This document shows positions 48,357 to 63,837 of a stretch of DNA of 64,000 bases, piece by piece. The notes beneath the pieces were generated by a model that searched no databases, was not told the DNA's origin, and saw only the letters and a list, made by a program, of their open reading frames with translations. How positions within the stretch are numbered: position 1 is the first letter of the stretch; every line of letters starts with the position of its first letter. Source of the DNA: Phycisphaerales bacterium Planc_01 (GTDB taxonomy: Bacteria; Planctomycetota; Phycisphaerae; Sedimentisphaerales; Anaerobacaceae); contig LVBB01000080.1 in assembly GCA_001603075.1 (NCBI GenBank), forward strand, positions 39,108 through 103,107, in the 5' to 3' direction. A program made the translations under genes and the position numbers.

Positions 48357-49024
48357 ACCCTCTGACCTCCTTTCCGGGGCCCATCCGGACGGTCGTCGCG
48401 ACGGTCGTCCGTCTCGGGCGAGCCCTCCAATATCTCTTTCAGGCGTTTGCGGGCGTAATACAGGCGGCTGGTCACCGTCCCCCGATTGCAGAACAGCACC
48501 CGCGCCATCTCGTCGTACGAGAGCTGGCGGAAGTGCCGCAACACGATCACCTCACGGTGCTTTTCGTCCAGTCGGCTGATCGCACGCCAGACGCGGTCCT
48601 TCGATTCGTTTCTCTCGGCCACCATCTCGGGATCGAACGCATCGGCCGGTCCGAACTGAGGGGGCTCGCCGTCCAGCTCGTCGAGGCTCTCGGCCCGCCG
48701 CAGCCGGCGCTTGCGCAGGTGGCTGAAACACAGGTTCCGCAGTATCTGGTAGAACCACGGGAAGAATCGCTCCTGGTCGTTGAGCTGGTCAAAATGCTTG
48801 TAGGCCCTATAAAACGCCTCTTGTGAGAGTTCCAGTGCGTCTTCGCGATTGCCGACGAGCCCCAGCGCGATGAAGTAGGCGTCCTTCATATGCGTCCGGA
48901 CGACGGCCTCGAACGCCTCGCGCGGGCTCCGGTACGAGCCCCATGCCACAGCGGTGTCCTGTTCGCATAGACTGTCCAACGTACGGCCACTCCCGGCCCC
49001 CCGAAATCCACTTTCGACCGTCAT
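48353..49024 (-). CDS. ECF sigma factor (SigW-like); start uncertain
   Basis: DA..LSQEAF.RAY, F.PW.YQI.RNLC, LD.KHREV.VLR.F..LSY.E.A..L....GTV.SRL..AR. Confidence 0.93.
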   Translation of the reverse strand: MTVESGFRGAGSGRTLDSLCEQDTAVAWGSYRSPREAFEAVVRTHMKDAYFIALGLVGNREDALELSQEAFYRAYKHFDQLNDQERFFPWFYQILRNLCFSHLRKRRLRRAESLDELDGEPPQFGPADAFDPEMVAERNESKDRVWRAISRLDEKHREVIVLRHFRQLSYDEMARVLFCNRGTVTSRLYYARKRLKEILEGSPETDDRRDDRPDGPRKGGQRV

Positions 49025-49212
49025 TCTGGTCTCTGTGTATATTGACTTCGGAAAGAGCCCGTTTCTTCAAGCAAAATGTTGGAAAATTGCGGGCGTCACC
49101 TTCTCGTGGTGGGCTGGCGGGGCAGACCCTTCCCAGAACCTCCGGACGCAGGTACGATAGGCTCGCATGCAGTTGCCCATGGTCCCGGACAGTCTCAGGG
49201 ACGGCGCGACGT

Positions 49213-51408
<2,196 letters not shown>

Positions 51409-51440: not shown

Positions 51441-53024
51441 TCAGTTGTCGAGAATCTCCTCGGCGCGCCCTTCATCCACGTCCATGACGTAGCGAAGATC
51501 GGTGATCGCCGCCGCTTCGGTCGTCAGTGCCGCGAGGTCGTCGCGGGACATGTACTCCAGCGAGAACTTCCGGCAGCCGGCCATCAGTTGGCGCAGGCCC
51601 TGGGCCAGTCGTTCATAGTATGTGTACAGGCCGATGGCCCCTGTGGGGATATCGTCGAAGTCTCCGTTGCCCAGTTCCTCGCGCAGCTCGGCGGCGGTGA
51701 CGAAGATCTCGTCTCTCGTCGAGCCGAACCGCTCGACGTAGACCGGGAGTTGATGGGCGTCGATGGCCCGACCGATGGTCTTGCCCACCATGGCCGCGGC
51801 CACGGGGGCGCGGGCCATGCCGATCAGCTTGACGTAGGGGGCGCCCAACGCCAGACCCTTGAAAATCAGGTCCTCGAAGGTGAATCCGCCCCCGACGGCG
51901 ATTGCCGGCAGGTGACGGTTGCGGTCCGCCAGTCGTTTGGCATACCGGTACAGCAGCGAATGCAGGTGCAGTGGCGGCACGCCCCACTCGTTCATCATCC
52001 GCCACGGGCTCATGCCGGTCCCGCCCGAGGCGCCGTCCACAGTGAGCAGATCGAGCTTGCACTTGGAGGCGAAGCTCAGCGCCCGCGCCAGGTCGGCCGG
52101 GCGATAGGCGCCGGTCTTCAGGAAGATGTACTTGGCCCCGGCGCGGCGCAGCTCTTCGACCCGCTGGGCGAACGATTCCTCCGACACCATGCCGACGCGC
52201 GAATGCCGCTCGAACTCCTTGAAGTTGCCGTGCTGGAATGCCTCGATGACCGCCGGGCTCGTCGGGTTCGGCAGTACGATGTACCCTCGCTCGTGCAGGA
52301 GCTGCGCCTTCTTGAGGTCTCTGATTTTGACCTCGCCACCGATGTTCTTGGCGCCCTGTCCCCACTTCATCTCGACGCACTCGACGCCGAGTTCGCCGAT
52401 CGCGTACTCCTGGACGCCCAGACGGGTGTCCTCGACGTTCGCCTGGACGATGATCGCGCCGTAGCCGTGGCGCTGGTGGTCGCGGTACAGCTTCACGCGC
52501 CTCTTGAGGTCGACGGTGTCGAGCACCCGGCCGTTCTGGATATCCGCCTGCGGGTCCATGCCGGCGACGTTCTCTCCGATGGTCAGTCCCGTTCCCGCCA
52601 GGGCCGATCCGATGGCCAGGCCTTCCCAGTTGTTCTTGGCGATGTCGGTGGACCCGATGCCGGAGATCAGCCAGGGGTAGCGGAACTTGATGCCCTTGTC
52701 GTGGCCGAACCGGACTTCCAGATTCACGGCGGGGAAGATCGCCTTGTCGCTGTCCGGCTCGATCCCGTGGGCGCCGACGCACGTGCCCATGATGTTCAAG
52801 TGCGAATAGTCCACCGGGTAGACCTTCTCCGAAGCGGTCGTGATCACGCCGAACGGCTGCGGATAGATCACCTCGTGGCCGCGATAGGCGGACTTGCCGA
52901 TCTCACACATGCCGATGCAGCCGTCCACGCAGGTCACACACATGCCGGAGGTGGGCGTCACGGAGCCTTCGGTTCGGTTCTTCGTAAGGGTGGCGGCGGA
53001 CGAATTCACTCTCGAAAGGGACAT
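51441..53024 (-). CDS. Stand-alone FMN-binding glutamate synthase-family protein (GltB FMN domain only)
   Basis: EMKWGQGAK, LKTGAY, VDGASGGTG, GGGF motifs; N-terminal CxxCxxxCxxxC; no amidotransferase domain. Confidence 0.88.
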   Translation of the reverse strand: MSLSRVNSSAATLTKNRTEGSVTPTSGMCVTCVDGCIGMCEIGKSAYRGHEVIYPQPFGVITTASEKVYPVDYSHLNIMGTCVGAHGIEPDSDKAIFPAVNLEVRFGHDKGIKFRYPWLISGIGSTDIAKNNWEGLAIGSALAGTGLTIGENVAGMDPQADIQNGRVLDTVDLKRRVKLYRDHQRHGYGAIIVQANVEDTRLGVQEYAIGELGVECVEMKWGQGAKNIGGEVKIRDLKKAQLLHERGYIVLPNPTSPAVIEAFQHGNFKEFERHSRVGMVSEESFAQRVEELRRAGAKYIFLKTGAYRPADLARALSFASKCKLDLLTVDGASGGTGMSPWRMMNEWGVPPLHLHSLLYRYAKRLADRNRHLPAIAVGGGFTFEDLIFKGLALGAPYVKLIGMARAPVAAAMVGKTIGRAIDAHQLPVYVERFGSTRDEIFVTAAELREELGNGDFDDIPTGAIGLYTYYERLAQGLRQLMAGCRKFSLEYMSRDDLAALTTEAAAITDLRYVMDVDEGRAEEILDN

Positions 53025-53048
53025 CGCAGGGTACCTCCTTGGGTTCCT

Positions 53049-53726
53049 CTATGGTTTCTTGATCTCACAGGCGACGCATGGGTCCATGTAGCACATCATG
53101 TCGTCGAACGAGTCTTTCTGCAGGCAGGGCGGACTGAGGTTGGCGCACCCGCCGCAAATCGCCTTCTCCGGCTGCGTATACGTGCACCGCAGCGAACAGG
53201 CCGGACAGACGTAAATGCACCCTCCGCATTGGCGACACACCTCCGACGGCACGTCGAACGGCGTGCCGATGCTCCGCTTCTCTCCGCGCCCCCGGAAGCC
53301 GATCGCTTTGGCCATCATCTGCTCTTCGCACATGCGCACGCATCGACCGCACAGAATGCAGTCGCTGTATTCCTGTCGGAACCGCTGCTGCGTGATCTCG
53401 TGTTTCGACGCCAGGTCCTGAATCTCCTTCGATTGCGGACAGGAGGCCAGCAACAGCTCGAGGATCATCTTGCGCGCCCGCATCACGCGCAAGGAAGCGG
53501 TTCGCACCTTCAGTCCAGGTTCGGCCGGATAGGTGCACGAGGAGACGAGCTTCGCCCCGGGGCCTTCTCCGATCTCCACGACGCAGAGCCGACAGGCCCC
53601 ATAGGGCGTCAGGCCCTCCATATGACAGAGTGTAGGGATGGGAAAGCCGAGGAACTGGGCCGCCTCGAGAACGGTTGTCCCTTTCTCCACGGAGACATCC
53701 AATCCGTTGATCGTAAGGGTGATCAT
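53049..53726 (-). CDS. NuoG/HoxU-like Fe-S subunit (2Fe-2S + 2x4Fe-4S) with Cys-rich tail
   Basis: IPTLCH...GACRLCVVE...SC, CILCGRCVRMC, CRQCGGCIYVCP. Confidence 0.88.
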   Translation of the reverse strand: MITLTINGLDVSVEKGTTVLEAAQFLGFPIPTLCHMEGLTPYGACRLCVVEIGEGPGAKLVSSCTYPAEPGLKVRTASLRVMRARKMILELLLASCPQSKEIQDLASKHEITQQRFRQEYSDCILCGRCVRMCEEQMMAKAIGFRGRGEKRSIGTPFDVPSEVCRQCGGCIYVCPACSLRCTYTQPEKAICGGCANLSPPCLQKDSFDDMMCYMDPCVACEIKKP

Positions 53727-56700
53727 GCGTATTCTTCTCCGACGGCGGCCGATTGTCCGCAGACCGGCTGTCGTTCCTGCGTAAAGGCCAGATCGCACCG
53801 GAGACACCGTCGCGCCTCCGCTCGGGCCTGTTCGGCGGACAGGGGCTTCTCGATTTCGCGGAAGTTCTTCTTTCGTTTCTCGACAGGTAGTACCGGAGGC
53901 ACCGCTCTTGTGGTGTTTTCGAGATCCTCCTCGTCGACGTCCGCAGGCTCCAGAAAGACGGTCGGCAGTTTCGCTTCGGCCGGTTCCACCAGCGGCTCGC
54001 CTCGCAGGTACCGGTCGATCACGTCCGCCACCTTCTTGCCGGCCGCGATGGCGTCGATGACCGTGTTCGGGCCGGTCACCAGATCGCCGCCGGCAAAAAC
54101 GCCCTCGACCGAGGTAGCCAGTGTCTTGGGATCGACCTTGACCCGTCCGGACTTGTCGGTCGCCAGACCCATCGCGGCCAGAGGGGCGCTTTGCGGCCGC
54201 TCGCCGATCGCGACGATCAGCGTGTCGAACTGGAGCGTGAACTCGGTTCCCGGAACGGGGACGGGGCGGCGCCGACCGCTGGCATCCAGATCGCCGAGAC
54301 GGTTGCGGATGCACTCGATGCCCACCAGACGGCCCTCCCGCGAGCAGATCCGGATCGGAGAGACCAGGGTCTCCAGCTCCACGCCTTCGCGAAGAGCCGT
54401 CTCGATCTCCTCCTGGCGCACGCGAATCTTCACAGGAGAGACCAGGGTCTCGATCGTCACCCCTTCCTCCAGTGCGGCCTCGACCTCTTCTTCATAGGCG
54501 GGCATCTCGCCGCGCGTGCGTCGATACAGCAGCGTCACGCTGGTGACGTCTTTCTGACGCAGAGCGACCCTCGCGGCATCGACCGCCGAATTGCCGCCGC
54601 CGATGATGCCGACGTGCCCGCTCGCCAGCTCCTCGCCTCGCAGGTTGAACGCCTTGAGGAACTGCATGGACGGATACACGCCCGCCAGGTCCTCTCCCTT
54701 GAGGTCGAGCCGCCAGCTCTCGTGCGCGCCGATCGCCAGGAACACCGCGTCGAACCCCTCGGCAGACAACCCCTCGAGGGTAACCTCCTGGCCGAAGACG
54801 ACGCCGTGCCGTACGGTGATGTTCTCGTTCATCAGCGTTGCGACTTCTGCGCGGACGATCTCTCTCGGCAGCCGGTAGGCGGGCAGCGAGCAGGCAAGCA
54901 TCCCTCCGGATTCCTGCTCGGCCTCGAGGACGGTGACCTTGTGGCCGAGAAGCGACAGACCATGTGCGGCGGCAAGACCGGCCGGCCCGGCGCCGACCAC
55001 CGCGATCTTCCTCGCCTGTCCGTTCGTGGAGCGGACCTCCGGCCGATACACCGCAGGGTCCACGCGGTCGGTGATGAACCGCTTCAAGGCGCGAATGGCG
55101 ACGGACTCCCCTCCGCCGACGCCCAGACTGCAGCGACTCTCGCACTTGCGGTCGCAGACGCGGGCGCTGACGGCGGGGAAGGGATTGGCCTGGCGGATGA
55201 TCCGGTAGGCCTCGTCGTACTGTCCCTTCTCGATGAGCGCCACATAGCGCCACGGCTCCGTATCGACCGGGCAAGCGGCCTGGCAGGGCGCGCCGACCAG
55301 ATTCTTGCAGACGTAGGCATCGCATCGTTTTTCTTCGACGTGTCGGCGATATTCCTCGCGAAAGTACTTGAGCGTGCTCAACACCGGGTTGGAGGCGGAC
55401 TGGCCCAACCCGCACATCGTCGTGTCCTTCACGACCAGAGCCAGTTCCTCCAGCAGGTCGATGTGCTCGGGCGTTCCTTTCCCAAGTGTGATGTCCTCAA
55501 GAATCTCGTACATCCGCTGCGTGCCTTTGCGGCAGGTGAAACACTTGCCGCAGGATTCGTCCTTGAGGAAGTTCATGAAGTACCGGGCGACATCCACCAT
55601 GCAGGTGTTCTCGTCCATCACGATCATGCCGCCGGAGCCCATGATCGAGCCCGCTTTGGTCAGACTGTCGTAGCTGATCGGCAGATCGAACAGCGACGCC
55701 GGGATGCACCCGCCCGAGGGGCCGCCTGTCTGCACCGCCTTGATCCGAGTTTTGCCGGCCGGACCTCCGCCGATCTCGTGGACCACCTCCTTGAGCGGCA
55801 TGCCCAGAGGGACCTCGACGAGTCCGGTGTTCCGGATCTTCCCCACCAGAGAGAAGATCTTGGTCCCCGTGTTGCCCTCAACGCCGATTCCCGCAAAGGC
55901 GTCGGCGCCGTGGCGAATGATGAACGGGATGTTGGCCAGCGTCTCGACATTGTTGATGCAGGTCGGCGCGCCGAAGATGCCCTTGGCGATGGGATACGGC
56001 GGTCGCTGTCGCGGCTCGCCCATGCGGCCTTCGATGGAGCGGATCAGGGCCGTCTCCTCGCCGCAAACGAAGGCGCCCGCCCCTTGCACGATGTCGATAT
56101 CGAATCGAGTGCCGGACCCGAGAATGTCCTCGCCCAGCAGGCCCATGTCACGCGCCTGGCGCAACGCGATCTGCGCGTGTTTGATCGCCAGGGGATACTC
56201 GCTGCGGACGTAGATGACGCCGTGCGTGGCGCCGATGGCGACGGCGGCAATGGTCAAACCCTCGAGGATCGCGTGCGGGTTGCCCTCCAGGAGACTGCGG
56301 TCCATGTAGGCGCCCGGGTCGCCCTCGTCCGCGTTGCACACGACGAACTTCTTACCGCCGACGGCGCGCGCGTTTCGGGCCAGTTCCCACTTCTTGCCCG
56401 TGGGGAAGCCGGCGCCGCCGCGGCCGCGCAGGCCGGAGATCTTGATCTGCTCGATAACCCACCCCGCGTCGGAACGGGACAACGCCTGGACAAGCGCGCT
56501 GTAGCCGCCCTGGGCGATGTAGTCCTCTATGCGGGTGGGGTCCACCTTCTCATTTCCACTCAACACCCCGCGGGCCTGTCTGGCGAAGAAGTCGATCTGA
56601 TCCTGTGTGGCAACGCAGGGTCCACCCATGGGGCCTGGCGGCAGCAGGCTCTCAATGACCTCATCGAGGGCGGCCGCCCGAACGATGCGTTCCACGTCGT

Positions 56701-56977
56701 CGGGATTGACTTTGGGGTAAAACGTTCGCCTGGGCTCCACGAGGATCGATGGCTCCATCTGACAGAACCCGTGACAGCCCGTGACGCGCAGGGCGACCCG
56801 GCCGGCCAGGTCGTTGGCCAGAATGGCACGCTGGGCCTCGCGGATGAGTTCGGCGGCGCCGCTGGCGATCCCGCAGGTGCCCGCCGGGATGACAATCGTC
56901 GTGGTGTTTGGATCGGCTTGCGCTCTCAGACGGTCGTGCAGAGCCTTGAAGTCATCGAAGCAGGTCAGCGTCTTCAT
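53723..56977 (-). CDS. NuoF/HydB-like NADH:FMN subunit fused to GltD/NfnB-like FAD/NADPH oxidoreductase
   Basis: GLRGRGGAGFPTG, NADEGDPGAYMDR, FVCGEETAL, GGPSGG, SCGKC.TCR, then APCQAACP, VGAGPAGL, GGGNSA, YRRT, FAGGD, EARRCLRC. Confidence 0.93.
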   Translation of the reverse strand: MKTLTCFDDFKALHDRLRAQADPNTTTIVIPAGTCGIASGAAELIREAQRAILANDLAGRVALRVTGCHGFCQMEPSILVEPRRTFYPKVNPDDVERIVRAAALDEVIESLLPPGPMGGPCVATQDQIDFFARQARGVLSGNEKVDPTRIEDYIAQGGYSALVQALSRSDAGWVIEQIKISGLRGRGGAGFPTGKKWELARNARAVGGKKFVVCNADEGDPGAYMDRSLLEGNPHAILEGLTIAAVAIGATHGVIYVRSEYPLAIKHAQIALRQARDMGLLGEDILGSGTRFDIDIVQGAGAFVCGEETALIRSIEGRMGEPRQRPPYPIAKGIFGAPTCINNVETLANIPFIIRHGADAFAGIGVEGNTGTKIFSLVGKIRNTGLVEVPLGMPLKEVVHEIGGGPAGKTRIKAVQTGGPSGGCIPASLFDLPISYDSLTKAGSIMGSGGMIVMDENTCMVDVARYFMNFLKDESCGKCFTCRKGTQRMYEILEDITLGKGTPEHIDLLEELALVVKDTTMCGLGQSASNPVLSTLKYFREEYRRHVEEKRCDAYVCKNLVGAPCQAACPVDTEPWRYVALIEKGQYDEAYRIIRQANPFPAVSARVCDRKCESRCSLGVGGGESVAIRALKRFITDRVDPAVYRPEVRSTNGQARKIAVVGAGPAGLAAAHGLSLLGHKVTVLEAEQESGGMLACSLPAYRLPREIVRAEVATLMNENITVRHGVVFGQEVTLEGLSAEGFDAVFLAIGAHESWRLDLKGEDLAGVYPSMQFLKAFNLRGEELASGHVGIIGGGNSAVDAARVALRQKDVTSVTLLYRRTRGEMPAYEEEVEAALEEGVTIETLVSPVKIRVRQEEIETALREGVELETLVSPIRICSREGRLVGIECIRNRLGDLDASGRRRPVPVPGTEFTLQFDTLIVAIGERPQSAPLAAMGLATDKSGRVKVDPKTLATSVEGVFAGGDLVTGPNTVIDAIAAGKKVADVIDRYLRGEPLVEPAEAKLPTVFLEPADVDEEDLENTTRAVPPVLPVEKRKKNFREIEKPLSAEQARAEARRCLRCDLAFTQERQPVCGQSAAVGEEYA
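54338..54493 (-). repeat. In-frame 78-bp (26-aa) tandem duplication inside the GltD-like domain
   Basis: EEEVEAALEEGVTIETLVSPVKIRVR / QEEIETALREGVELETLVSPIRICSR; identical 17-mer GGAGAGACCAGGGTCTC at 54357 and 54435. Confidence 0.9.
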
Positions 56978-56999
56978 GGATCATTCCTGATACGGCCGC

Positions 57000-57848
57000 T
57001 CAATCCGCTTCGGCCGGCGTGGTCTCCAGGTTCAGTCTGCGTCCAGCGCAACCCCGGCGCGTGCAGACCATGAGAGTGGCGCCCTTGTCGATCGTCATCC
57101 GGGCCATGTCCGCTCCACATTCCGAACAGCGCGAGTCCCCGACCAGGTCCTGCCCGCACATCGGGCAGGCAAGGACGGTGATCGAATGCGCAGGAGTCTC
57201 CCGCTCGCAGACCGATCGGAGACTGCCGTGGAGGGAGGACAGATACAGGGGCTGACTGTCCCCGTCCCAGGACATCGTCAGTCGAATCGACGGGACGTTG
57301 TCGATGGGATGTGCCGCGTCCATGAGGCTCTGTCGGCAGTGCGGACATCGGACGGACAGCGGAAAGCGACGGTTCTCGCGGGGCTGATCCAGACCTTCAC
57401 GGGTCCGTTTCAGGATCTCCGCGACCTGATTCTTTCTGACGTTCGAGTAATAGCGCCCGTCCACCACGACGATCGGTCCGAGGGCACAGGCGCCCAGGCA
57501 GTTCACCGTTTCGAGCGTGAACTCCTTGTCGGGCGTCGTCTCTCCGGAGGCGATGCCGAGCTGGCCGATGAATTCCTCAGCGATCTTCGGAGCGCCGCGC
57601 ACGTGACATGCGGTGCCGAGACATACCGAGACGAGGTGCTTGCCTCGGGGTTTCAGGCTGAAGGCCTTGTAGAACGTGACGACGGCATAGATGTCGGTCA
57701 GAGACTCACCGGTCGCCGCGGCCATGCGCCGCAGGGCGTCCTCCGGAAGATATCCATACTCCGACTGGATCGCGGTGAGAATGGACAGCATGCCCCCCAG
57801 GGAGCCATGGTGCTCCGCGACGATCGTCTCCACAGTCCGGTCATCCAT
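57000..57848 (-). CDS. NuoE/HydC-like 2Fe-2S subunit with C-terminal zinc-ribbon-like extension
   Basis: IQ..YGYLP, VCLGTACHVRG, VNCLGACALGP; tail CPHC...CPMC...CSEC...CTRRGC. Confidence 0.9.
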   Translation of the reverse strand: MDDRTVETIVAEHHGSLGGMLSILTAIQSEYGYLPEDALRRMAAATGESLTDIYAVVTFYKAFSLKPRGKHLVSVCLGTACHVRGAPKIAEEFIGQLGIASGETTPDKEFTLETVNCLGACALGPIVVVDGRYYSNVRKNQVAEILKRTREGLDQPRENRRFPLSVRCPHCRQSLMDAAHPIDNVPSIRLTMSWDGDSQPLYLSSLHGSLRSVCERETPAHSITVLACPMCGQDLVGDSRCSECGADMARMTIDKGATLMVCTRRGCAGRRLNLETTPAEAD

Positions 57849-57899
57849 TGGAACCTCGTGTCGATGGGCCGTGTCCACTCGGAGGACGCCGAGATGGCC

Positions 57900-58175
57900 T
57901 CAGCAGTAATCCTCACAATGCCACACCCCGCCCGGCGAATCCTGCAGAGTGCAGCCGTCCCGATTCTTGCAGTTGCAGCACAGTCCCATCGCGATGTCGA
58001 GGTTCGGTTCTTCCTCCTCGATGACCGACACCGGCGGGTGCGCCAGTTCGAGCGACGTCGCGTCATCGAATTCTTCACAGAACAGGACGGGCAGTTTGAT
58101 GCCTTTGCGTCGAGTGCATATAGACTTGCCGTTGCACGTCGAGCAGAGCCCCAGGGATTGTTCTACGAGCGCCAT
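57900..58175 (-). CDS. Small Cys-rich protein with two internal repeats
   Basis: RBS GGGAGG; GLCSTC-x5-C...CEEF and GLCCNC-x5-C...CEDY; first gene after the sigma54 promoter. Confidence 0.75.
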   Translation of the reverse strand: MALVEQSLGLCSTCNGKSICTRRKGIKLPVLFCEEFDDATSLELAHPPVSVIEEEEPNLDIAMGLCCNCKNRDGCTLQDSPGGVWHCEDYC

Positions 58176-58262
58176 CGCGTCAACCTCCCTTTCTTTCTGC
58201 ACTTGCCGGTATGACCCACGCAACTGCTCCGAGTCGTTGCCGACATGGACAACTGTTGCATA

Positions 58263-58278
58263 AGCAATGAATGTGCCA
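58263..58278 (-). promoter_or_regulatory. sigma54 (-24/-12) promoter
   Basis: Minus strand TGGCAC-ATTCA-TTGCT, an exact consensus match. Confidence 0.88.
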
Positions 58279-58518: not shown

Positions 58519-59868
58519 TCACGGGTCCAGATGGTATTCGATGGTCTTCTTGCGCAGGGTCTTGCGATCGATCCCGAGGATCTGGGCCGCTCGCGTCTTG
58601 TTGCCGCCGGTGCTGGCCAGGACGTTGCGGATGTGCTCGGCCTCCACCTCGGCCAGGGTCCGGTTCACGACGGTCGTACGCTGGGCCGAGAATCGCGCAG
58701 ACGAGGGCAGGTCCGGGACCTCGATAACCTCGTCGTCGTTCATGACGACGATGCGCTGGATGGCGTTCTCCAGTTCCCGCGCGTTGCCCGGCCATGCGTA
58801 GTCTTGCAGGGCCGCCATGGCCCGCTCGGAAAAACGCGGGACCGGTTTGCGCAGTTCCGAGGCGAATTTCTCGGCAAAGTGGCGCACCAGCAATGGAATG
58901 TCGCCGACCCGGGCCCGCAGGGGGGGCACCTCGATGGCGACGACGTTGATGCGGTAGTACAGTTCCTCGCGGAACACCCGGCTCTGAATGAGGCTCGGCA
59001 GGTTCTTGTTCGTCGCGGCGATAATCCTCACGTCCACCTTGCGCCCGCGCGAGTCGCCCACCATGCGCACTTCTTTGTCCTGGAGCACTCGCAGCAGCTT
59101 GACCTGCATGGCGACGCTCGTTTCGCCGATCTCGTCGAGGAAGATCGTCCCGCCGTCGGCGGTCTGGAAGAACCCGGCCCGCGATTCGTGGGCCCCGGTG
59201 AACGCCCCTCTGACGTATCCGAACAGCTCGCTCTCCAGCAGGCTCTCCGGAATGCCGCCGCAGTTGACCGGCACGAACGGGGCCGAGGCCCGGGCGCTGC
59301 TATAGTGAATTGCCCGCGCCACCAACTCTTTTCCGCTGCCGCTTTCTCCGGTGATCAGAACGGTCGCCGAGGTCGCAGACGCCTTGCGGATCGCCGCGAA
59401 GACCTTCTGCATCGCCTGCGATTCGCCGATGAGGCCGTGCGCACGCTCGGGCCTGGGCGCAGGCCGTCTGGCGGCCTCGCGCCTGCGTTTGAGCTTGTCG
59501 AGCACTCGACGGACCGCTGCGAAAAGTTCCGCGTCGGTGAAGGGCTTCGATACATATTCCTCCGCTCCACTCTTGATGGCTTCGACGGCGCTCTCCACGG
59601 TGGCGTATCCGGTGATCATCATCACGGCGATGTTCTTGTAGTTCTCACGGATGTGACGGATCAAGTCGATGCCACTGAGTTTGGGCATCTTCAGGTCGGT
59701 GATGACCAGGTCGATGGCGTTCCCGTCGAGAAAGCTCAGCGCATCGACGGCGTTGGGGGCGGTGTAGGTCATATACCCTTCGGCCGTCAGGCTCCGTTGA
59801 AGGACTTCCAGCGTGCTGAGGGTATCGTCGACGACGAGAATCGTCTCTTGGCGCTCTGGCGAATTCAT
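58519..59868 (-). CDS. sigma54-dependent response regulator (NtrC/AtoC family)
   Basis: Receiver (ILVVDD, ITDLKMP), [37 protein letters not shown], Fis-type HTH. Confidence 0.96.
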
Positions 59869-61037
59869 GATTCCGACCTGTCCTCCCAGTATGGAGCCGG
59901 CTCGATGGGCAGTCGAATGGTGAAGGTCGTTCCGGCCCCCGGCGCGCTCGCCACTTCAATCGTCCCCCCATGCGCCGTGACGATCCCATGGACCACGGGC
60001 AGGCCCAGACCGGTTCCCTGATTCACCTCTTTCGTCGTGAAGAAGGGCAGGAACAGTCGGTTCTGGACCTCCTCGGTCATGCCCATTCCCGTATCTTCCA
60101 CGATACAGACGACGTGACCGTCGCGCACCTGCGTCCGCACGAGAAGTCGACCTCCGTCCGGCATGGCCTGAACGGCGTTCACGACGAGATTGACCAGCAC
60201 CTGGGTCAACTGGCCGGCATCACCCGCCAGCAGGGGCATTTCCGGGCACAGCGCGCAGGCCAGCTCGATGCCCTCTTTCTCGAAATGGTGCTTGAACAGG
60301 TCGATGGCCCCCACGATCACCTGGTTGAGATTCACTGGCCCTTTGAACGTGGGCGTCTGCCGGGCGAACAGCAGCAGCTTCTTGATGATCTCTCGGGCGT
60401 GCAGGGAGGCGGTTACGATCTTCTCGAGGTCCTTTCGGCCGCCGTCGGGCAGCGCCGCATTGCGCTGGAGCAACTGGGCAAAACCGAGAATGCTGCTGAG
60501 CGGCTCGTTCAGTTCGTGCGCGACGCCCGCCGCCAGTTGCCCGATGGTGGCCAGGCGGTCTGCGTGCATAAGTTGGTTCTGCAGTCGGGCCCTCTCCTCC
60601 TCCGCCTGCTGGTGTTCGACGACGACGGCGATCTGCCTGGCGATGGCGTTCAGCAGGCTCCGCTCGTCCTTCAGGAAGGGGCCATCCTCCGGACAGGGCC
60701 TTTCCTCTGTGTAGACGACCTCGACCACGCCTCGGCACTTGCCCTCCACGACTACCTCGGCCGCCTGTCGCCGCCGGCCCTCCTTGAAGCCGGACGTCTC
60801 ATACCGTTTTCCGTCCAGCACGATCCGGGCCGCGGCGATTTCCGGGTGCTGCCATGCCGGCGGAATCAACTCGACAATGCACTGAAGCACCTTGTCCGGT
60901 GATCCGACAGACCTCGCCGATACCCGGCTGATACGGTAGAGACAGCTCAACTCCTTCACGCGTTCGCGAAGCGCCTGAGCCGCCCAATCGGTGGCCTGTA
61001 AGGCGGTTTGCCCCTTGCCCTCTGCTTGTTTGCCCAT
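59865..61037 (-). CDS. Cytoplasmic histidine kinase (GAF-like N-terminus)
   Basis: No TM helix; LRERVKEL.CLY...IPPAWQHP; H-box AHELNEPL; NLVVNA; DTGMGM; GTGLGL. Confidence 0.93.
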   Translation of the reverse strand: MGKQAEGKGQTALQATDWAAQALRERVKELSCLYRISRVSARSVGSPDKVLQCIVELIPPAWQHPEIAAARIVLDGKRYETSGFKEGRRRQAAEVVVEGKCRGVVEVVYTEERPCPEDGPFLKDERSLLNAIARQIAVVVEHQQAEEERARLQNQLMHADRLATIGQLAAGVAHELNEPLSSILGFAQLLQRNAALPDGGRKDLEKIVTASLHAREIIKKLLLFARQTPTFKGPVNLNQVIVGAIDLFKHHFEKEGIELACALCPEMPLLAGDAGQLTQVLVNLVVNAVQAMPDGGRLLVRTQVRDGHVVCIVEDTGMGMTEEVQNRLFLPFFTTKEVNQGTGLGLPVVHGIVTAHGGTIEVASAPGAGTTFTIRLPIEPAPYWEDRSES

Positions 61038-61389: not shown

Positions 61390-62154
61390 ATGCGGACGGT
61401 AGGCAAAAGGCGGGAAACGGGACGGTTTCGTCGAGGGGGATTCACCCTGGTCGAGTTGCTGGTCGTGGTCGCGATCATCTCTCTTCTGATGTCGCTGTCG
61501 CTGCCTGCCCTGACCCGGGCGCATCGGCAGGCCGAACAGGTTCACTGCCTGGCCAACCAGCGACAACTGATGCTGGCCTGGCTGCTGTATGCACCGGACC
61601 ACGATGACAGACTCTGCACGCCGAATACCTGGACATCGAACCTCAAGGCCTATCTGCAGTCGGAGGACGTTCTGCTCTGCAAGACCGACGATGACGGCAA
61701 CCAGTCCAATTCCTATGGCCTCTCGAATACGATGGGGGGGGACAGACGCGATGGGGTCACCCCCTTTGTCCGTCTGCACCAGGTTTCCGGCTCCAGCGCG
61801 AAGATGGTCTTCATCGACAAGGAACGCCGGGGTTCGAATTGTTTCTGGCCGCTGGTGCGGGACGACGACCGGTGGGTGTGGCGTCCGTGGTCCTGGCCGC
61901 CCGGATTGCAGGGCCTGACGAACCGGCACCACAACGGGTGCAACGCTTCGTTCGCCGACGGACACGGCGAATGGATTCACTGGAAGGACGATCGCACGCG
62001 CAAGCTGATCCAGGGCCGGATCGCCGACCACGAGGAGGGGTCGGACAACAACCCCGATCTTGAGTACATGATCGAGACGCTGACGGTGCATCGCATCGCG
62101 GATCCCAATGCGTTGGAGGGTCGCAGCGCCTCCAAAGGCGAGAGCGGAGACTGA
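61390..62154 (+). CDS. Prepilin-type N-terminal cleavage/methylation protein with H-X9-DG domain
   Basis: GG-FTLVELLVVVAIIS; RHHNGCNASFADGH. Confidence 0.9.
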   Translation: MRTVGKRRETGRFRRGGFTLVELLVVVAIISLLMSLSLPALTRAHRQAEQVHCLANQRQLMLAWLLYAPDHDDRLCTPNTWTSNLKAYLQSEDVLLCKTDDDGNQSNSYGLSNTMGGDRRDGVTPFVRLHQVSGSSAKMVFIDKERRGSNCFWPLVRDDDRWVWRPWSWPPGLQGLTNRHHNGCNASFADGHGEWIHWKDDRTRKLIQGRIADHEEGSDNNPDLEYMIETLTVHRIADPNALEGRSASKGESGD

Positions 62155-62769: not shown

Positions 62770-63837
62770 ATGAAGAAGGCATTCACACTCGTGGAGATTC
62801 TGGTGGTCGTTGCGATCATCAGCCTTCTGCTGGCCCTGAGCCTGCCGGCGCTGCGGCGCGTGCGCGAACAAGGCGATGAAACCGTCTGCCAGTCGAATCT
62901 GCGCCAGCTCGCCATCATGCTCCAGACCTACACCAACGACCACGACGGCCTGTTTCCGCGTGCCGGTGGCCTGTTCCACTCCCGCGTCTCGTTCTGGCCG
63001 CCCCACGAGCCCTACAGGCCTTACCCCACCTGCTGTCGCTGGCACGATGCGCGAATCGGACTCGAAAGCCCGATGATGCGCCACGAACGCCCGGAGATCC
63101 GAGGTACATTCTGGCCGTATCTTGGAGATCCACGGATCGTGCGCTGCAAGGTCGGCGTGCGCGCCAATATCGAAAGGGGCTGCCACAACTACTGCCCCCT
63201 CTGTGCCCACGACCCGAGCATCGACATCGTGCCCCAGTACACCTACGGCATGAATGCCTATCTCGGCAGGGACATGCTTCGCACCGGCCGCTCTGAGAGC
63301 GGACAGCTCGGCGACGCCGTGGACAGACGGACCATTCGACAATGGTCGGTCCACCGCCAGACGCAGGTGACGCGCAGCCCATCCGACGTCTTTGCCTTCG
63401 GCGAGGTGAACTCCTGGGCGATCAACACCGAAGGACGCCAGCCGATCGGCCTCCAGCCCCAGTGGGCCGGGCCCTGCAACCTCAGCGGCATCTACTACCG
63501 CGGTCAAGACCCGCCGGGCATGGACGGGACCCTCAAGCTGCCGTCTCTGAGTATCGGCGAGAGCTTTGAACTCGGCGGTGGGCTGAGCCGGCAGGACAGG
63601 CGCTTCACCGGCGATGCCTTTGCGACCTGCCATCGCCCGCACAAGGGCGATCTGAACACCGGACATTCCTATGTCGTCATGCTCGACGGCCACACACAGA
63701 AGGTCACCGTTGACGATCAGCTTCGCGCCAGTCGGCGGGGCCCGTTCTCGGGCGAGAGCCGTCTCGGGCCGGGCGGCAACCTGACCCTGGCCTGGCCGAT
63801 CGACGTTCCGCCCCCGGGCGGCTGGGAGAACCAGTGA
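62770..63837 (+). CDS. Prepilin-type N-terminal cleavage/methylation protein
   Basis: KA-FTLVEILVVVAIIS; C-terminal CH...YVVMLDGH (H-X-DG with insertion). Confidence 0.88.
   Translation: MKKAFTLVEILVVVAIISLLLALSLPALRRVREQGDETVCQSNLRQLAIMLQTYTNDHDGLFPRAGGLFHSRVSFWPPHEPYRPYPTCCRWHDARIGLESPMMRHERPEIRGTFWPYLGDPRIVRCKVGVRANIERGCHNYCPLCAHDPSIDIVPQYTYGMNAYLGRDMLRTGRSESGQLGDAVDRRTIRQWSVHRQTQVTRSPSDVFAFGEVNSWAINTEGRQPIGLQPQWAGPCNLSGIYYRGQDPPGMDGTLKLPSLSIGESFELGGGLSRQDRRFTGDAFATCHRPHKGDLNTGHSYVVMLDGHTQKVTVDDQLRASRRGPFSGESRLGPGGNLTLAWPIDVPPPGGWENQ

Follow-up and report, generated by a model that had tools for sequence, protein, structure and literature searches.

A conserved operon combining a Bfu-type NADH module with a glutamate-synthase-like protein in anaerobic bacteria

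Results and discussion

Gene content and regulation of the operon

Five genes lie on the minus strand of the 64-kb stretch of DNA analysed here (hereafter, the window), taken from Phycisphaerales bacterium Planc_01, and are separated by gaps of only 24, 23, 22 and 21 bp. The first encodes a 91-aa Cys-rich protein (57900-58175), read from the ATG that follows a GGGAGG Shine-Dalgarno sequence; the longer 132-aa ORF that reaches 58298 runs over the promoter. This protein contains two repeats of GLCxxC...C...C(E/D)(E/D)(F/Y), matches no Pfam or NCBIfam family even at an E-value of 10, and may be a small metal or Fe-S carrier. It is followed by a NuoE-like protein with zinc ribbons (57000-57878, 292 aa), a NuoF::GltD fusion (53723-56977, 1084 aa), a short NuoG-like protein (53049-53699, 216 aa) and a GltB-like FMN protein (51441-53024, 527 aa).

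A -24/-12 element, TGGCACATTCATTGCT at 58263-58278 (-), lies 87 bp upstream of the first gene and is the only match to TGGCAC-N5-TTGCW in the window, where 0.08 matches are expected by chance. Our scan found no sigma-70-like promoter and no minus-strand terminator inside the operon, and rpoN is present in the genome. Directly upstream of the promoter is the gene for a sigma-54-dependent response regulator (58519-59868, minus strand) with REC, AAA+ and HTH_8 domains (Pfam Sigma54_activat, 236 bits; Response_reg; HTH_8), which matches AtoC/NtrC/ZraR-like NCBIfam models, all below their equivalog cut-offs. The stop codon of a sensor histidine kinase gene (59865-61037, minus strand) overlaps the start of the regulator gene. 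The kinase has HisKA and HATPase_c domains preceded by an N-terminal sensor domain of about 150 aa, which appears GAF-like, though on a weak match (E-value 0.011). A cytoplasmic two-component system, the signal for which is unknown, likely switches on the five-gene operon.

Conservation of the gene order across phyla

The unit is colinear in essentially all of 80 related loci from more than ten phyla (80 of 80 wherever enough flank is present), including loci from Planctomycetota, Zixibacteria, Ignavibacteria, Bacteroidota, Verrucomicrobiota, Acidobacteriota, Latescibacterota, Syntrophorhabdus, Smithella, Desulfatiglans, Spirochaetales and others, an arrangement far beyond chance. A 47%-identical sister GltB-like gene is also preceded by NuoE-NuoF-NuoG-like genes. 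The GltB-like and NuoG-like proteins are the most conserved parts, being 78-93% and 77-91% identical across phyla, respectively, as against about 55% for GltD, about 60% and 40% for the two parts of the NuoE-like protein, and about 35% for the small Cys protein, which is present at this position in most loci. The response regulator is adjacent in most loci, and both the sensor and the catalytic part of the kinase are found upstream of it in about 40 of them. A comparable -24/-12 element lies in the spacer between the regulator gene and the operon in 38 of 38 loci, compared to 6 of 38 same-length coding controls.

Relationship of the NuoEFG-like proteins to Bfu enzymes

The NuoE-like protein has a thioredoxin-fold [2Fe-2S] domain at residues of about 17-160 (Pfam 2Fe-2S_thioredx, 159 bits), with its four Cys visible in CLGTAC...NCLGAC, and a C-terminal extension of about 125 aa in which DZR/Zn_ribbon matches are weak. 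The NuoF part of the fusion comprises an N-terminal Trx-like domain, an FMN/NADH site (Complex1_51K, 157 bits), SLBB and a [4Fe-4S] (B1) domain (NADH_4Fe-4S, 114 bits). Its best PDB matches over residues 28-561 are the BfuB subunits of electron-bifurcating enzymes at 590-624 bits (PDB identifiers 7t2r_B, 7q4v_B and 9n5u_B at 610-624 bits), compared to about 335 bits for NuoF of complex I. From about residue 550 it continues into a complete GltD-type module with 2x[4Fe-4S] (Fer4_20), FAD and NAD(P)H sites (Pyr_redox_2), which is most similar to NfnA/StnC and matches the NCBIfam models PRK12814 and gltA below their cut-offs. Interestingly, 12 of the 80 loci lack GltD and instead retain the canonical C-terminal 2x[4Fe-4S] ferredoxin domain of BfuB (B3/B4; IPR017896), as in their 616-aa orthologues, and alignment of the junction shows that GltD takes the place of this domain in the window. 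The short NuoG-like protein has the [2Fe-2S] (Fer2_4; IPR001041) and 2x[4Fe-4S] ferredoxin (Fer4_7; IPR017896) domains expected of BfuA and an 8-Cys C-terminal tail, but no H-cluster and no Mo/W domain, and among NCBIfam models it matches only the N-terminal parts of FeFe_hydrog_A6, HoxU and NuoG. No hydrogenase or Mo/W partner is present in the cluster.

Among the closest known systems are Bfu (BfuABC/HydABC-like) enzymes, especially Type 2 members with a short BfuA and a separate catalytic subunit, such as WorABCSL and Bam (PMC9304861, PMC12318220). However, a GltB-like FMN protein is not among the functions listed for the family in the text and one supplementary file of PMC9304861, and the replacement of B3/B4 by GltD in the window, the zinc ribbons on BfuC, the extra small Cys protein and the dedicated sigma-54 two-component control are further differences. 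The Nfn-Bfu and Stn transhydrogenases (NfnABC of Caldicellulosiruptor and Thermococcus, StnABC of Sporomusa ovata; PMC7483475, PMC12018979, PMC11829005) likewise combine NuoE-, NuoF- and NuoG-like parts with a GltD-type module, but there the GltD domain is inserted into a large NuoG/Fdh-like BfuA subunit on the mid-potential branch, whereas here it is fused to the C-terminus of NuoF in place of the ferredoxin-branch clusters, the NuoG-like subunit is only 216 aa with no Fdh-like domain, and a fourth flavoprotein is present.

The GltB-like FMN protein

The GltB-like protein forms a distinct family far from canonical GltB. Pfam Glu_synthase (PF01645) matches it with 54 bits against a cut-off of 20.4, but only over residues 279-400, about a third of the protein, and phmmer found no match in the PDB. 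Nevertheless, local hhalign comparison with GltB FMN domains gave a probability of 95.6% and an E-value of 4e-9 over 414 columns, with the GE, RxGV, QGAK, GGTGxSP and GG..D motifs aligned; GE151 and Q223GAK226 correspond to GEGG and QGAK of GltB, and GGTGMSP is also aligned. These motifs are invariant in the core family. An AlphaFold model was poor (pLDDT 58.8), and Foldseek searches with it returned only generic FMN barrels. The protein lacks the amidotransferase, central and GXGXG domains of glutamate synthase; the class II amidotransferase domain (PF00310) is absent from all five proteins, and its only occurrence in the genome is in a full-length canonical GltB elsewhere. The region of GltB that carries the [3Fe-4S] motif (Cys-x5-Cys-x4-Cys) aligns to the Cys-less stretch MVGKTIGRAIDAHQ, and a conserved N-terminal motif, C29xxC32xxxC36xxxC40, is present instead. 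It is also noted that exchange of the electron-input module on a glutamate synthase core has precedent (PMC3448663). Glutamate synthases include NADPH-GltS alpha/beta, Fd-GltS, archaeal split GOGAT and the predicted F420-dependent GltS (PMC8097209, PMC3448663).

Genomic association with glutamate metabolism

Glutamate dehydrogenase (GDH) genes sit beside or inside the cluster in 9 of the 80 loci, in one of which the GDH gene lies between those for the Cys protein and NuoE, behind the sigma-54 site, and also next to the GltB-like gene in three sister-family loci. They belong to two classes, NADP-GdhA, above its equivalog cut-off, and an archaeal/RocG-like type. Thirteen of 15 other carrier genomes have no canonical glutamate synthase at all, and one complete carrier genome has neither GOGAT nor GDH. 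However, the genome analysed here already has a complete GltB, and carriage is only weakly anti-correlated with GOGAT in Planctomycetota (18% of carriers against 34% of non-carriers, p 0.06) and is uninformative in a phylum that lacks GOGAT altogether (0 of 201 genomes) and has GDH almost everywhere (199 of 201). Carriers have ammonium transporters less often than non-carriers (16% against 34%, p 0.006), which speaks against a role in scavenging external ammonium. Carriage is not tied to absence of GOGAT or to ammonium uptake.

A hypothesis for the function of the complex

Based on homology and strict synteny, we hypothesize that the operon plausibly encodes a soluble Fe-S flavoprotein complex of the Bfu type, in which NAD(H) binds at the FMN of the NuoF-like subunit and the NuoE-like and short NuoG-like subunits provide two one-electron branches. 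PMC12018979 assigns C1-B3-B4 to the ferredoxin branch and the BfuA clusters plus B1 to the third-substrate branch. The NuoG-like branch would end at the GltB-like protein, the presumed catalytic subunit, which most probably interconverts 2-oxoglutarate + NH4+ and L-glutamate through 2-iminoglutarate, without glutamine. In the window the second branch would end in the fused GltD module (FAD, NADP(H)), which stands exactly where other Bfu enzymes, and the GltD-less orthologues, carry the two [4Fe-4S] clusters that lead to ferredoxin. The inferred net reaction is glutamate/2-oxoglutarate+NH4+ coupled to NAD(H) plus NADP(H), or plus ferredoxin in the GltD-less form. We place moderate confidence in this assignment; substrate, direction and energy coupling are inferred and not shown. 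By our calculation, which takes E0' to be about -0.13 V from an approximate GDH equilibrium constant, E' of the couple is about -0.29 V at 1 mM NH4+ and about -0.35 V at 10 uM NH4+, between NAD and NADPH/ferredoxin. True bifurcation or confurcation is only a tentative suggestion, and in the fused form, where the ferredoxin-branch clusters are missing, classical ferredoxin-linked bifurcation is doubtful. The preliminary description, which proposed a glutamate-synthase-like or unknown FMN reductase complex wired to an NADH/NADPH/ferredoxin module, possibly bifurcating and not a characterised system, is supported by these observations, since the GltB-like gene co-occurs with the Nuo-like genes in the same order in every informative locus and our literature searches found no description of the system. 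It did not, however, recognize that the GltD fusion is optional, that the FMN protein is a distinct family, that the genome also has a canonical GltB, that a dedicated histidine kinase belongs to the unit, or that GDH genes recur at the cluster.

It is possible, though less likely, that the same complex and wiring serve another substrate, such as another 2-oxo or imino acid, another amino acid, or an unrelated C=N or C=C compound, with glutamate linked only indirectly, for example through transamination or through ammonium released. The family is very distant from GltB, the Gln after the GG motif is Glu, and a family-specific ERHSR motif is invariant. The GltS arginine that binds the distal carboxylate (probably R992 in Fd-GltS numbering) aligns to F263, but this lies next to a 14-aa insertion where the alignment is unreliable, and the family has its own invariant R273 and R276. 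Further, 50-52%-identical paralogues sit in a different sigma-54 cluster with Haem_oxygenase_2-like iron proteins, one such locus also holding hemerythrin and a RidA imine deaminase, which suggests amino-acid/imine chemistry that need not involve glutamate, and the ~60%-identical homologue is a stand-alone gene. On the other hand, all the neighbouring ELFV dehydrogenases score best as glutamate dehydrogenases, in two independent classes, the catalytic Glu and the QGAK motif of GltS are kept, and GltD is the canonical partner of GltB.

A plain NAD(P)H-dependent glutamate synthase or dehydrogenase without energy coupling, in which the NuoEF-like proteins only widen the choice of donor to NADH as well as NADPH, appears unlikely. 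The absence of B3/B4 in the fused form, the presence of only 0-3 Cys in the N-terminal Trx-like domain of NuoF across orthologues, such that the B5 cluster is probably missing, and the existence of non-bifurcating HydB/NuoF relatives (PMC7311640) are in its favour. However, the NuoF part is closer to bifurcating BfuB than to complex I NuoF, the GltD-less orthologues keep the complete bifurcation-type architecture, an active archaeal NfnABC also has zinc at B5 (PMC12018979), and a five-subunit, three-flavin machine is hard to justify when GDH already does the simple reaction in the same genomes. An Nfn/Stn-like NADH:NADP+ transhydrogenase, with or without ferredoxin, in which the GltB-like protein is only a structural, regulatory or electron-storage subunit, is very unlikely despite the NfnA/StnC-like GltD part and the resemblance of the NuoF, NuoE and short NuoG set to the Bfu core of NfnABC, given that 12 of 80 loci lack GltD yet keep the GltB-like gene, that the GltB-like and NuoG-like proteins are the most conserved, that the putative catalytic motifs are invariant, and that in known Nfn-Bfu enzymes GltD sits inside BfuA and not on BfuB.

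More speculatively, though this is less likely than not, the complex could be a new class of flavin-based electron-bifurcating/confurcating enzyme that couples the glutamate/2-oxoglutarate+NH4+ couple to NAD(H) and to ferredoxin, or to NADP(H) in the GltD-fused form. This would be an ATP-independent third route between ammonium and glutamate, beside GDH and GS-GOGAT, in widespread anaerobes, and could pull reductive amination at low intracellular ammonium or make glutamate oxidation to NADH feasible by co-oxidising a low-potential carrier. A possible functional analogy, thermodynamic only, exists with unrelated proteins (Etf and FAD-LDH), in that oxidation of a relatively high-potential substrate would be driven by simultaneous oxidation of a low-potential carrier, with NADH as the product.

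Implications

Glutamate is the hub of nitrogen metabolism, and only GDH and GS-GOGAT are recognised as general routes between ammonium and glutamate. The gene cluster is present in 42% of sampled genomes of one candidate phylum, in about 15% of sampled Planctomycetota and in at least ten further phyla, and many of these lack any canonical glutamate synthase. The identity of about 80% across phyla in its catalytic and adjoining Fe-S subunits points to a strongly constrained function that has been overlooked. If the inferred chemistry is right, it adds a new third substrate to the Bfu family of bifurcating enzymes and gives that family a natural experiment, with NADPH/GltD standing in the place of the ferredoxin branch. 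If the substrate is something else, the cluster is still a widespread and well-defined orphan enzyme worth characterising.

Organization of the operon and its promoter

Between positions 51441 and 61037 of the window, all real genes lie on the minus strand. Read 5' to 3', they begin with a 390-aa histidine kinase (59865-61037), followed by a sigma-54-dependent response regulator (58519-59868), whose start overlaps the stop of the kinase gene, and a spacer of 343 bp. Downstream of the spacer are a 91-aa Cys-rich protein (57900-58175), whose ATG follows GGGAGG, a NuoE-like protein with a zinc-ribbon tail (57000-57878), a 1084-aa NuoF::GltD fusion (53723-56977), a 216-aa NuoG-like Fe-S protein (53049-53699) and a 527-aa GltB-like protein (51441-53024). 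The four gaps inside the operon are 21-24 bp. The spacer holds TGGCACATTCATTGCT at 58263-58278, which is the only match to the sigma-54 consensus in the 64-kb window, where 0.08 matches are expected by chance, and the genome encodes RpoN. Simple scans found no sigma-70-like promoter and no minus-strand terminator inside the operon. Thus, the preliminary description of five co-oriented genes behind a consensus sigma-54 promoter is confirmed in every detail, with the one correction that the small protein starts at 58175 and not at the ATG of the longer ORF that overlaps the promoter.

On the plus strand, a convergent gene (48943-51408) for an 821-aa Kef-type Na+/H+ (K+) exchanger, with TrkA-N and two TrkA-C domains, ends 32 bp from the stop codon of the last gene of the operon, but it is not conserved next to the operon in other loci. 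Two further plus-strand proteins (61390-62154 and 62770-63837) have the prepilin-like N-terminus (GFTLVELLVVVAIISLL) that is common in Planctomycetota, which fits the taxonomic labels of the closest loci (Pirellulales, Sedimentisphaerales).

Domain composition of the encoded proteins

Searches against Pfam and NCBIfam identified HisKA and HATPase_c in the kinase, behind a 150-aa domain with a faint GAF signal, and REC, Sigma54_activat and HTH_8 in the regulator, which resembles AtoC, NtrC and ZraR although no equivalog cut-off is reached. The NuoE-like protein has a thioredoxin-like [2Fe-2S] domain and weak double-zinc-ribbon matches. In the fusion protein, Complex1_51K, SLBB and NADH_4Fe-4S span residues 178-546 and are followed directly by Fer4_20 and Pyr_redox_2, which together make a full GltD module. 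The NuoG-like protein contains Fer2_4 and a 2x[4Fe-4S] domain and matches only the N-terminal ~200 residues of the HydA, HoxU and NuoG models; by our reading of the sequence, the His-ligated cluster motif is absent (only one Cys is left in 'LLLASCP') and there is an 8-Cys C-terminal tail. The last protein matches Glu_synthase with 54 bits over residues 279-400 only and has no NCBIfam model, whereas the small Cys protein matches nothing, even at E 10.

Conservation of the gene cluster

The GltB-like protein has more than 8000 90%-identity clusters of homologues and is 78-93% identical in MAGs labelled Planctomycetota, Phycisphaerae, Lentisphaeria, Thermodesulfobacteriota, Bacteroidota, Latescibacterota, KSB1 and others. 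A scan of one genome per species found 583 relatives, of which the best 80 loci were examined. In every locus with enough flank, the order is regulator, Cys protein, NuoE-Zn, NuoF(-GltD), NuoG-like and GltB-like, and about 40 loci also show the kinase with the same sensor domain upstream. The approximate identity across loci falls from ~82% for the NuoG-like protein and ~80% for the GltB-like protein to ~66% for NuoF, ~61% for NuoE, ~55% for GltD, ~41% for the zinc ribbons and ~37% for the Cys protein. A weighted -24/-12 search finds a GG-N10-GC element scoring at least 12 of 14.5 in the regulator-operon spacer of 38 of 38 loci, while the same threshold is reached in 6 of 38 same-length coding controls. 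The objection raised in the preliminary description itself, that the GltB-like gene might not co-occur with the Nuo-like genes, does not hold; even a 47%-identical sister of the GltB-like gene (locus L103) is preceded by NuoE-NuoF-NuoG-like genes.

Interestingly, in about 13-15 of the 80 loci (for example, L048:6554-9802, and also L014, L030, L032, L041, L052, L077-L079 and others), a ~1080-aa protein follows the GltB-like gene by ~220 bp on the same strand. It has the same N-terminal GAF-like sensor domain as the histidine kinase of the operon, fused to a PPDK_N ATP-grasp domain and a nucleotidyltransferase domain, and may be a covalent-modification regulator that responds to the same signal. 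It is absent from the window studied here.

The GltD fusion is optional and its position is informative

Twelve of the 80 loci have a 616-634-aa NuoF with no GltD, the C-terminus of which is the 2x[4Fe-4S] ferredoxin-type domain (CxxCxxCxxxCP twice) that is typical of BfuB/HydB. An alignment of the junction shows that both forms share ...RCxAxVCKxL..., after which the sequence continues either into this ferredoxin domain or into the GltD Fer4_20 domain. In the cryo-EM work on NfnABC, the B3/B4 clusters of this domain, together with the NuoE-type C1 cluster, form the low-potential branch to ferredoxin, and the BfuA clusters and B1 carry electrons of the third substrate (PMC12018979). We infer that in the GltD-less form the complex has the standard Bfu wiring, with NAD(H), ferredoxin, and a third substrate behind the NuoG-like subunit, and that in the fused form, which includes this window, NADP(H) at the GltD FAD occupies the place of ferredoxin. 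This differs from Stn/NfnABC, where the GltD domain is inserted into the large NuoG-like subunit (PMC7483475).

In phmmer searches, the NuoF part is much closer to bifurcating BfuB chains (PDB chains 7t2r_B, 7q4v_B and 9n5u_B; 610-624 bits) than to complex I NuoF (~335 bits), and the GltD part is closest to NfnA/StnC. The N-terminal Trx-like domain keeps only 0-3 Cys among orthologues and its [2Fe-2S] (B5) is therefore probably absent; an active archaeal NfnABC likewise carries zinc at that site (PMC12018979). The CxxC motif (EARRCLRCDL) that normally opens the GltD Fer4_20 domain lies at the extreme C-terminus of the fusion (53789-53818; residues 1054-1063), and Pfam matches Fer4_20 from profile position 19 at the junction, which suggests a circular permutation of the first cluster-binding element. 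The GltD module also has a 26-aa duplication (54347-54418; residues 854-877 of the fusion), in which RQEEIETALREGVELETLVSPIRI repeats the preceding EEGVTIETLVSPVKI segment. It is not a tandem repeat at the DNA level or an assembly artefact but a lineage-variable insert, being present in some lineages (loci L001, L007, L015, L056 and L072) and absent in others (loci L009, L012 and L021).

The FMN protein is a distinct family with a GltS-type barrel

A phmmer search initiated using the GltB-like protein did not find any PDB chain. An exhaustive search of 1.84 billion 50%-identity cluster representatives gave only 1045 hits, mostly fragments, with a handful of full-length sister clusters at 29-54% identity, and canonical GltB proteins are not reached. 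However, a local profile-profile comparison (hhalign) of 46 family members with the FMN domains of this genome's own GltB, eight other Planctomycetota GltBs and two archaeal-type subunits does give a significant result, with a probability of 95.6% and an E-value of 4e-9 over 414 aligned columns. The similarity became significant only with this 11-sequence GltB profile, as a single-sequence comparison with the genome's own GltB was too weak (probability 6%).

In this alignment, GE151NV of the GltB-like protein corresponds to GEGG of GltB, Q194...R201LGV to KQ...RFGV, K220WGQ223GAK226 to IKxAQGAK, ERH274S to PHHD, DGASGGTGMSP to SGHDGGTGASP, and GGGF..ED to DGG..GRD. In GltS, these motifs hold the catalytic Glu, Gln and Lys, probably Glu903, Gln969 and Lys972 in the numbering of the Synechocystis enzyme. 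The Gln after the GG motif is Glu231, and the Arg that binds the distal carboxylate aligns to Phe263, although this position is next to a 14-residue insertion where the alignment is not reliable. The 3Fe-4S Cys region aligns to a Cys-less stretch. The family instead has invariant C29, C32 and C40 and a nearly invariant C36 at the N-terminus, and we infer that this is the obvious candidate for the cluster that feeds the FMN. Structure prediction did not add to these observations. An AlphaFold2 model built on a 35-sequence alignment had a mean pLDDT of 58.8, with the N-terminal 100 residues below 50, and Foldseek searches with it against the PDB returned only generic FMN TIM barrels (IMPDH-like, lactate oxidase, DHODH), with no GltS in the top 50. 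The family is so uniform (78-100% identity) that the alignment carries little covariation signal, and the model was not used to infer function.

Genomic links to glutamate

A census of flanking genes produced what we consider the best functional clue. Glutamate dehydrogenase (GDH) genes lie directly next to the cluster in seven loci (L024, L025, L045, L049, L051, L067 and L074). In another locus (L021), a GDH gene lies between the Cys protein and NuoE, downstream of the sigma-54 element, and in a further one (L050) it lies between the regulator and the Cys protein. Among the more distant GltB-like genes retrieved from Planctomycetota, three of about ten (L100, L101 and L102) also have an ELFV dehydrogenase as a direct neighbour. 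The neighbours belong to two different GDH classes, viz., NADP-specific GdhA, scoring 755-771 bits against a cut-off of 536, and the archaeal/RocG-like type, and all of them score best as glutamate dehydrogenases, not as Leu/Phe/Val dehydrogenases. With one to three such genes per 3-5-Mb genome, we estimate that fewer than one chance neighbour is expected in 80 loci, and the varied positions argue for repeated, independent recruitment. Together with the GltD partner and the kept GltS motifs, this makes glutamate/2-oxoglutarate/NH4+ the most likely chemistry.

Distribution relative to known routes of ammonium assimilation

The genome studied here has GDH and a complete canonical GltB (contig C21:7081-11757, outside the window), a 1559-aa frame with amidotransferase (GATase_2), FMN (Glu_synthase), 3Fe-4S and GXGXG parts. 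The operon is therefore not its only route to glutamate. A third weak PF01645 hit in the genome (contig C75) is IMP dehydrogenase and not a paralogue. Of 15 other carrier genomes, seven of them complete chromosomes, only one has the amidotransferase domain, two (one of which is also the genome with the amidotransferase domain) have an archaeal-type split GOGAT, thirteen have no canonical Glu_synthase domain, and one (G007) lacks GDH as well. In two carrier genomes (G011, locus L098, C7:41500-45500; G001, locus L099, C1:6760500-6764500), an archaeal-type split glutamate synthase consists of a ~400-aa amidotransferase-like protein, a 514/555-aa ferredoxin-FMN subunit with QGAKPGLGG and a Cys cluster motif, and a third 408/427-aa GltB-related protein.

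We tested whether the operon replaces GOGAT, but the background is also low. In 251 Planctomycetota, 39 carry a GltB-like gene and 80 carry GOGAT, with 7 carrying both, i.e., GOGAT is present in 18% of carriers against 34% of non-carriers (Fisher p 0.06). In 201 genomes of a second phylum, which contains the Zixibacteria chromosomes, 85 carry the gene, none has GOGAT and 199 have GDH. The contrast is thus weak or absent, and co-occurrence with GDH is uninformative. A link with ammonium uptake was also examined. In the second phylum, ammonium transporters (AmtB) are rarer in carriers, being present in 14 of 85 against 40 of 116 genomes (16% against 34%; p 0.006), and scavenging of external ammonium was therefore dropped as the leading physiological role. 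Although these counts are not phylogenetically corrected, we read them as indicating that the operon is an accessory system in lineages that mostly live without GOGAT, and that it is not tied to uptake of external ammonium.

Proposed mechanism

Based on the domain content, the synteny, the sigma-54 signals, the replacement of B3/B4 by GltD, the GltS-type motifs and the GDH neighbourhood, we hypothesize that the five proteins form one soluble complex. In this scheme, NAD(H) reacts at the NuoF FMN, and one branch runs through the NuoG-like clusters, and probably the Cys tail of this subunit and the N-terminal Cys site of the FMN protein, to the GltB-type FMN, at which 2-iminoglutarate formed from 2-oxoglutarate and free NH3 is reduced, or glutamate is oxidised. 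The other branch runs through the NuoE cluster to GltD-FAD/NADP(H), or to B3/B4 and ferredoxin in the GltD-less form. That the substrate pair is glutamate/2-oxoglutarate and the wiring is as described appears about as likely as not, and that the coupling is a true bifurcation/confurcation remains a tentative suggestion, somewhat less likely than not.

From the GDH equilibrium constant, the E0' of the couple is probably about -0.13 V. With 0.5 mM 2-oxoglutarate and 100 mM glutamate, this gives an E' of -0.29 V at 1 mM NH4+ and -0.35 V at 10 uM NH4+, which lies between the NAD couple and the NADPH/ferredoxin couples, the position that third substrates occupy in Bfu enzymes. Both directions are thermodynamically reasonable, viz., reductive amination driven by NADH plus a lower-potential donor, and glutamate oxidation to NADH assisted by a low-potential donor, analogous to the confurcating lactate dehydrogenase. 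The AmtB result and the amino-acid-based lifestyle described for related organisms (PMC6338057) lean slightly toward an intracellular or catabolic role, whereas the sigma-54 control does not discriminate between the directions.

Other contexts of the FMN protein family

In one Planctomycetota family with several complete genomes, the ~60%-identical homologue is a stand-alone, monocistronic gene (L085:10492-12171, L086:10802-12541 and L087:1730-3412). No Nuo-like genes are nearby, and a MoxR/DUF58/BatD cluster lies divergently next to it. The FMN protein can therefore work with a diffusible partner. Paralogues of 50-52% identity sit in a separate, undescribed sigma-54/histidine-kinase-controlled cluster (L089:1500-7982 in genome G139, and L105:6341-13560). 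Both clusters have one or two Haem_oxygenase_2-like 'iron-containing redox enzyme' genes, and L089 also holds a hemerythrin and a RidA imine deaminase. RidA fits imine chemistry, but it also keeps open the alternative that family members act on other amino or imino acids.

Relationship to known systems

The closest known systems are the Bfu family (Type 2 architecture), the Nfn-Bfu/Stn transhydrogenases and glutamate synthase, and the operon lacks at least one defining feature of each. The survey of the Bfu family (PMC9304861) lists hydrogenase, Fdh, Nfn, Wor, Por, Codh, Bam, F420, Mbh, Nuo and rubrerythrin partners and leaves 17-18 clades unassigned, and neither its text nor the one supplementary file examined mentions a glutamate-synthase-like partner. 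The GltD-fused form may also have escaped its domain-architecture filter. No description of the cluster was found in the literature searched. We regard the cluster as encoding an inferred Bfu-type complex with a new catalytic module and, in this window, a new occupant of the ferredoxin branch.
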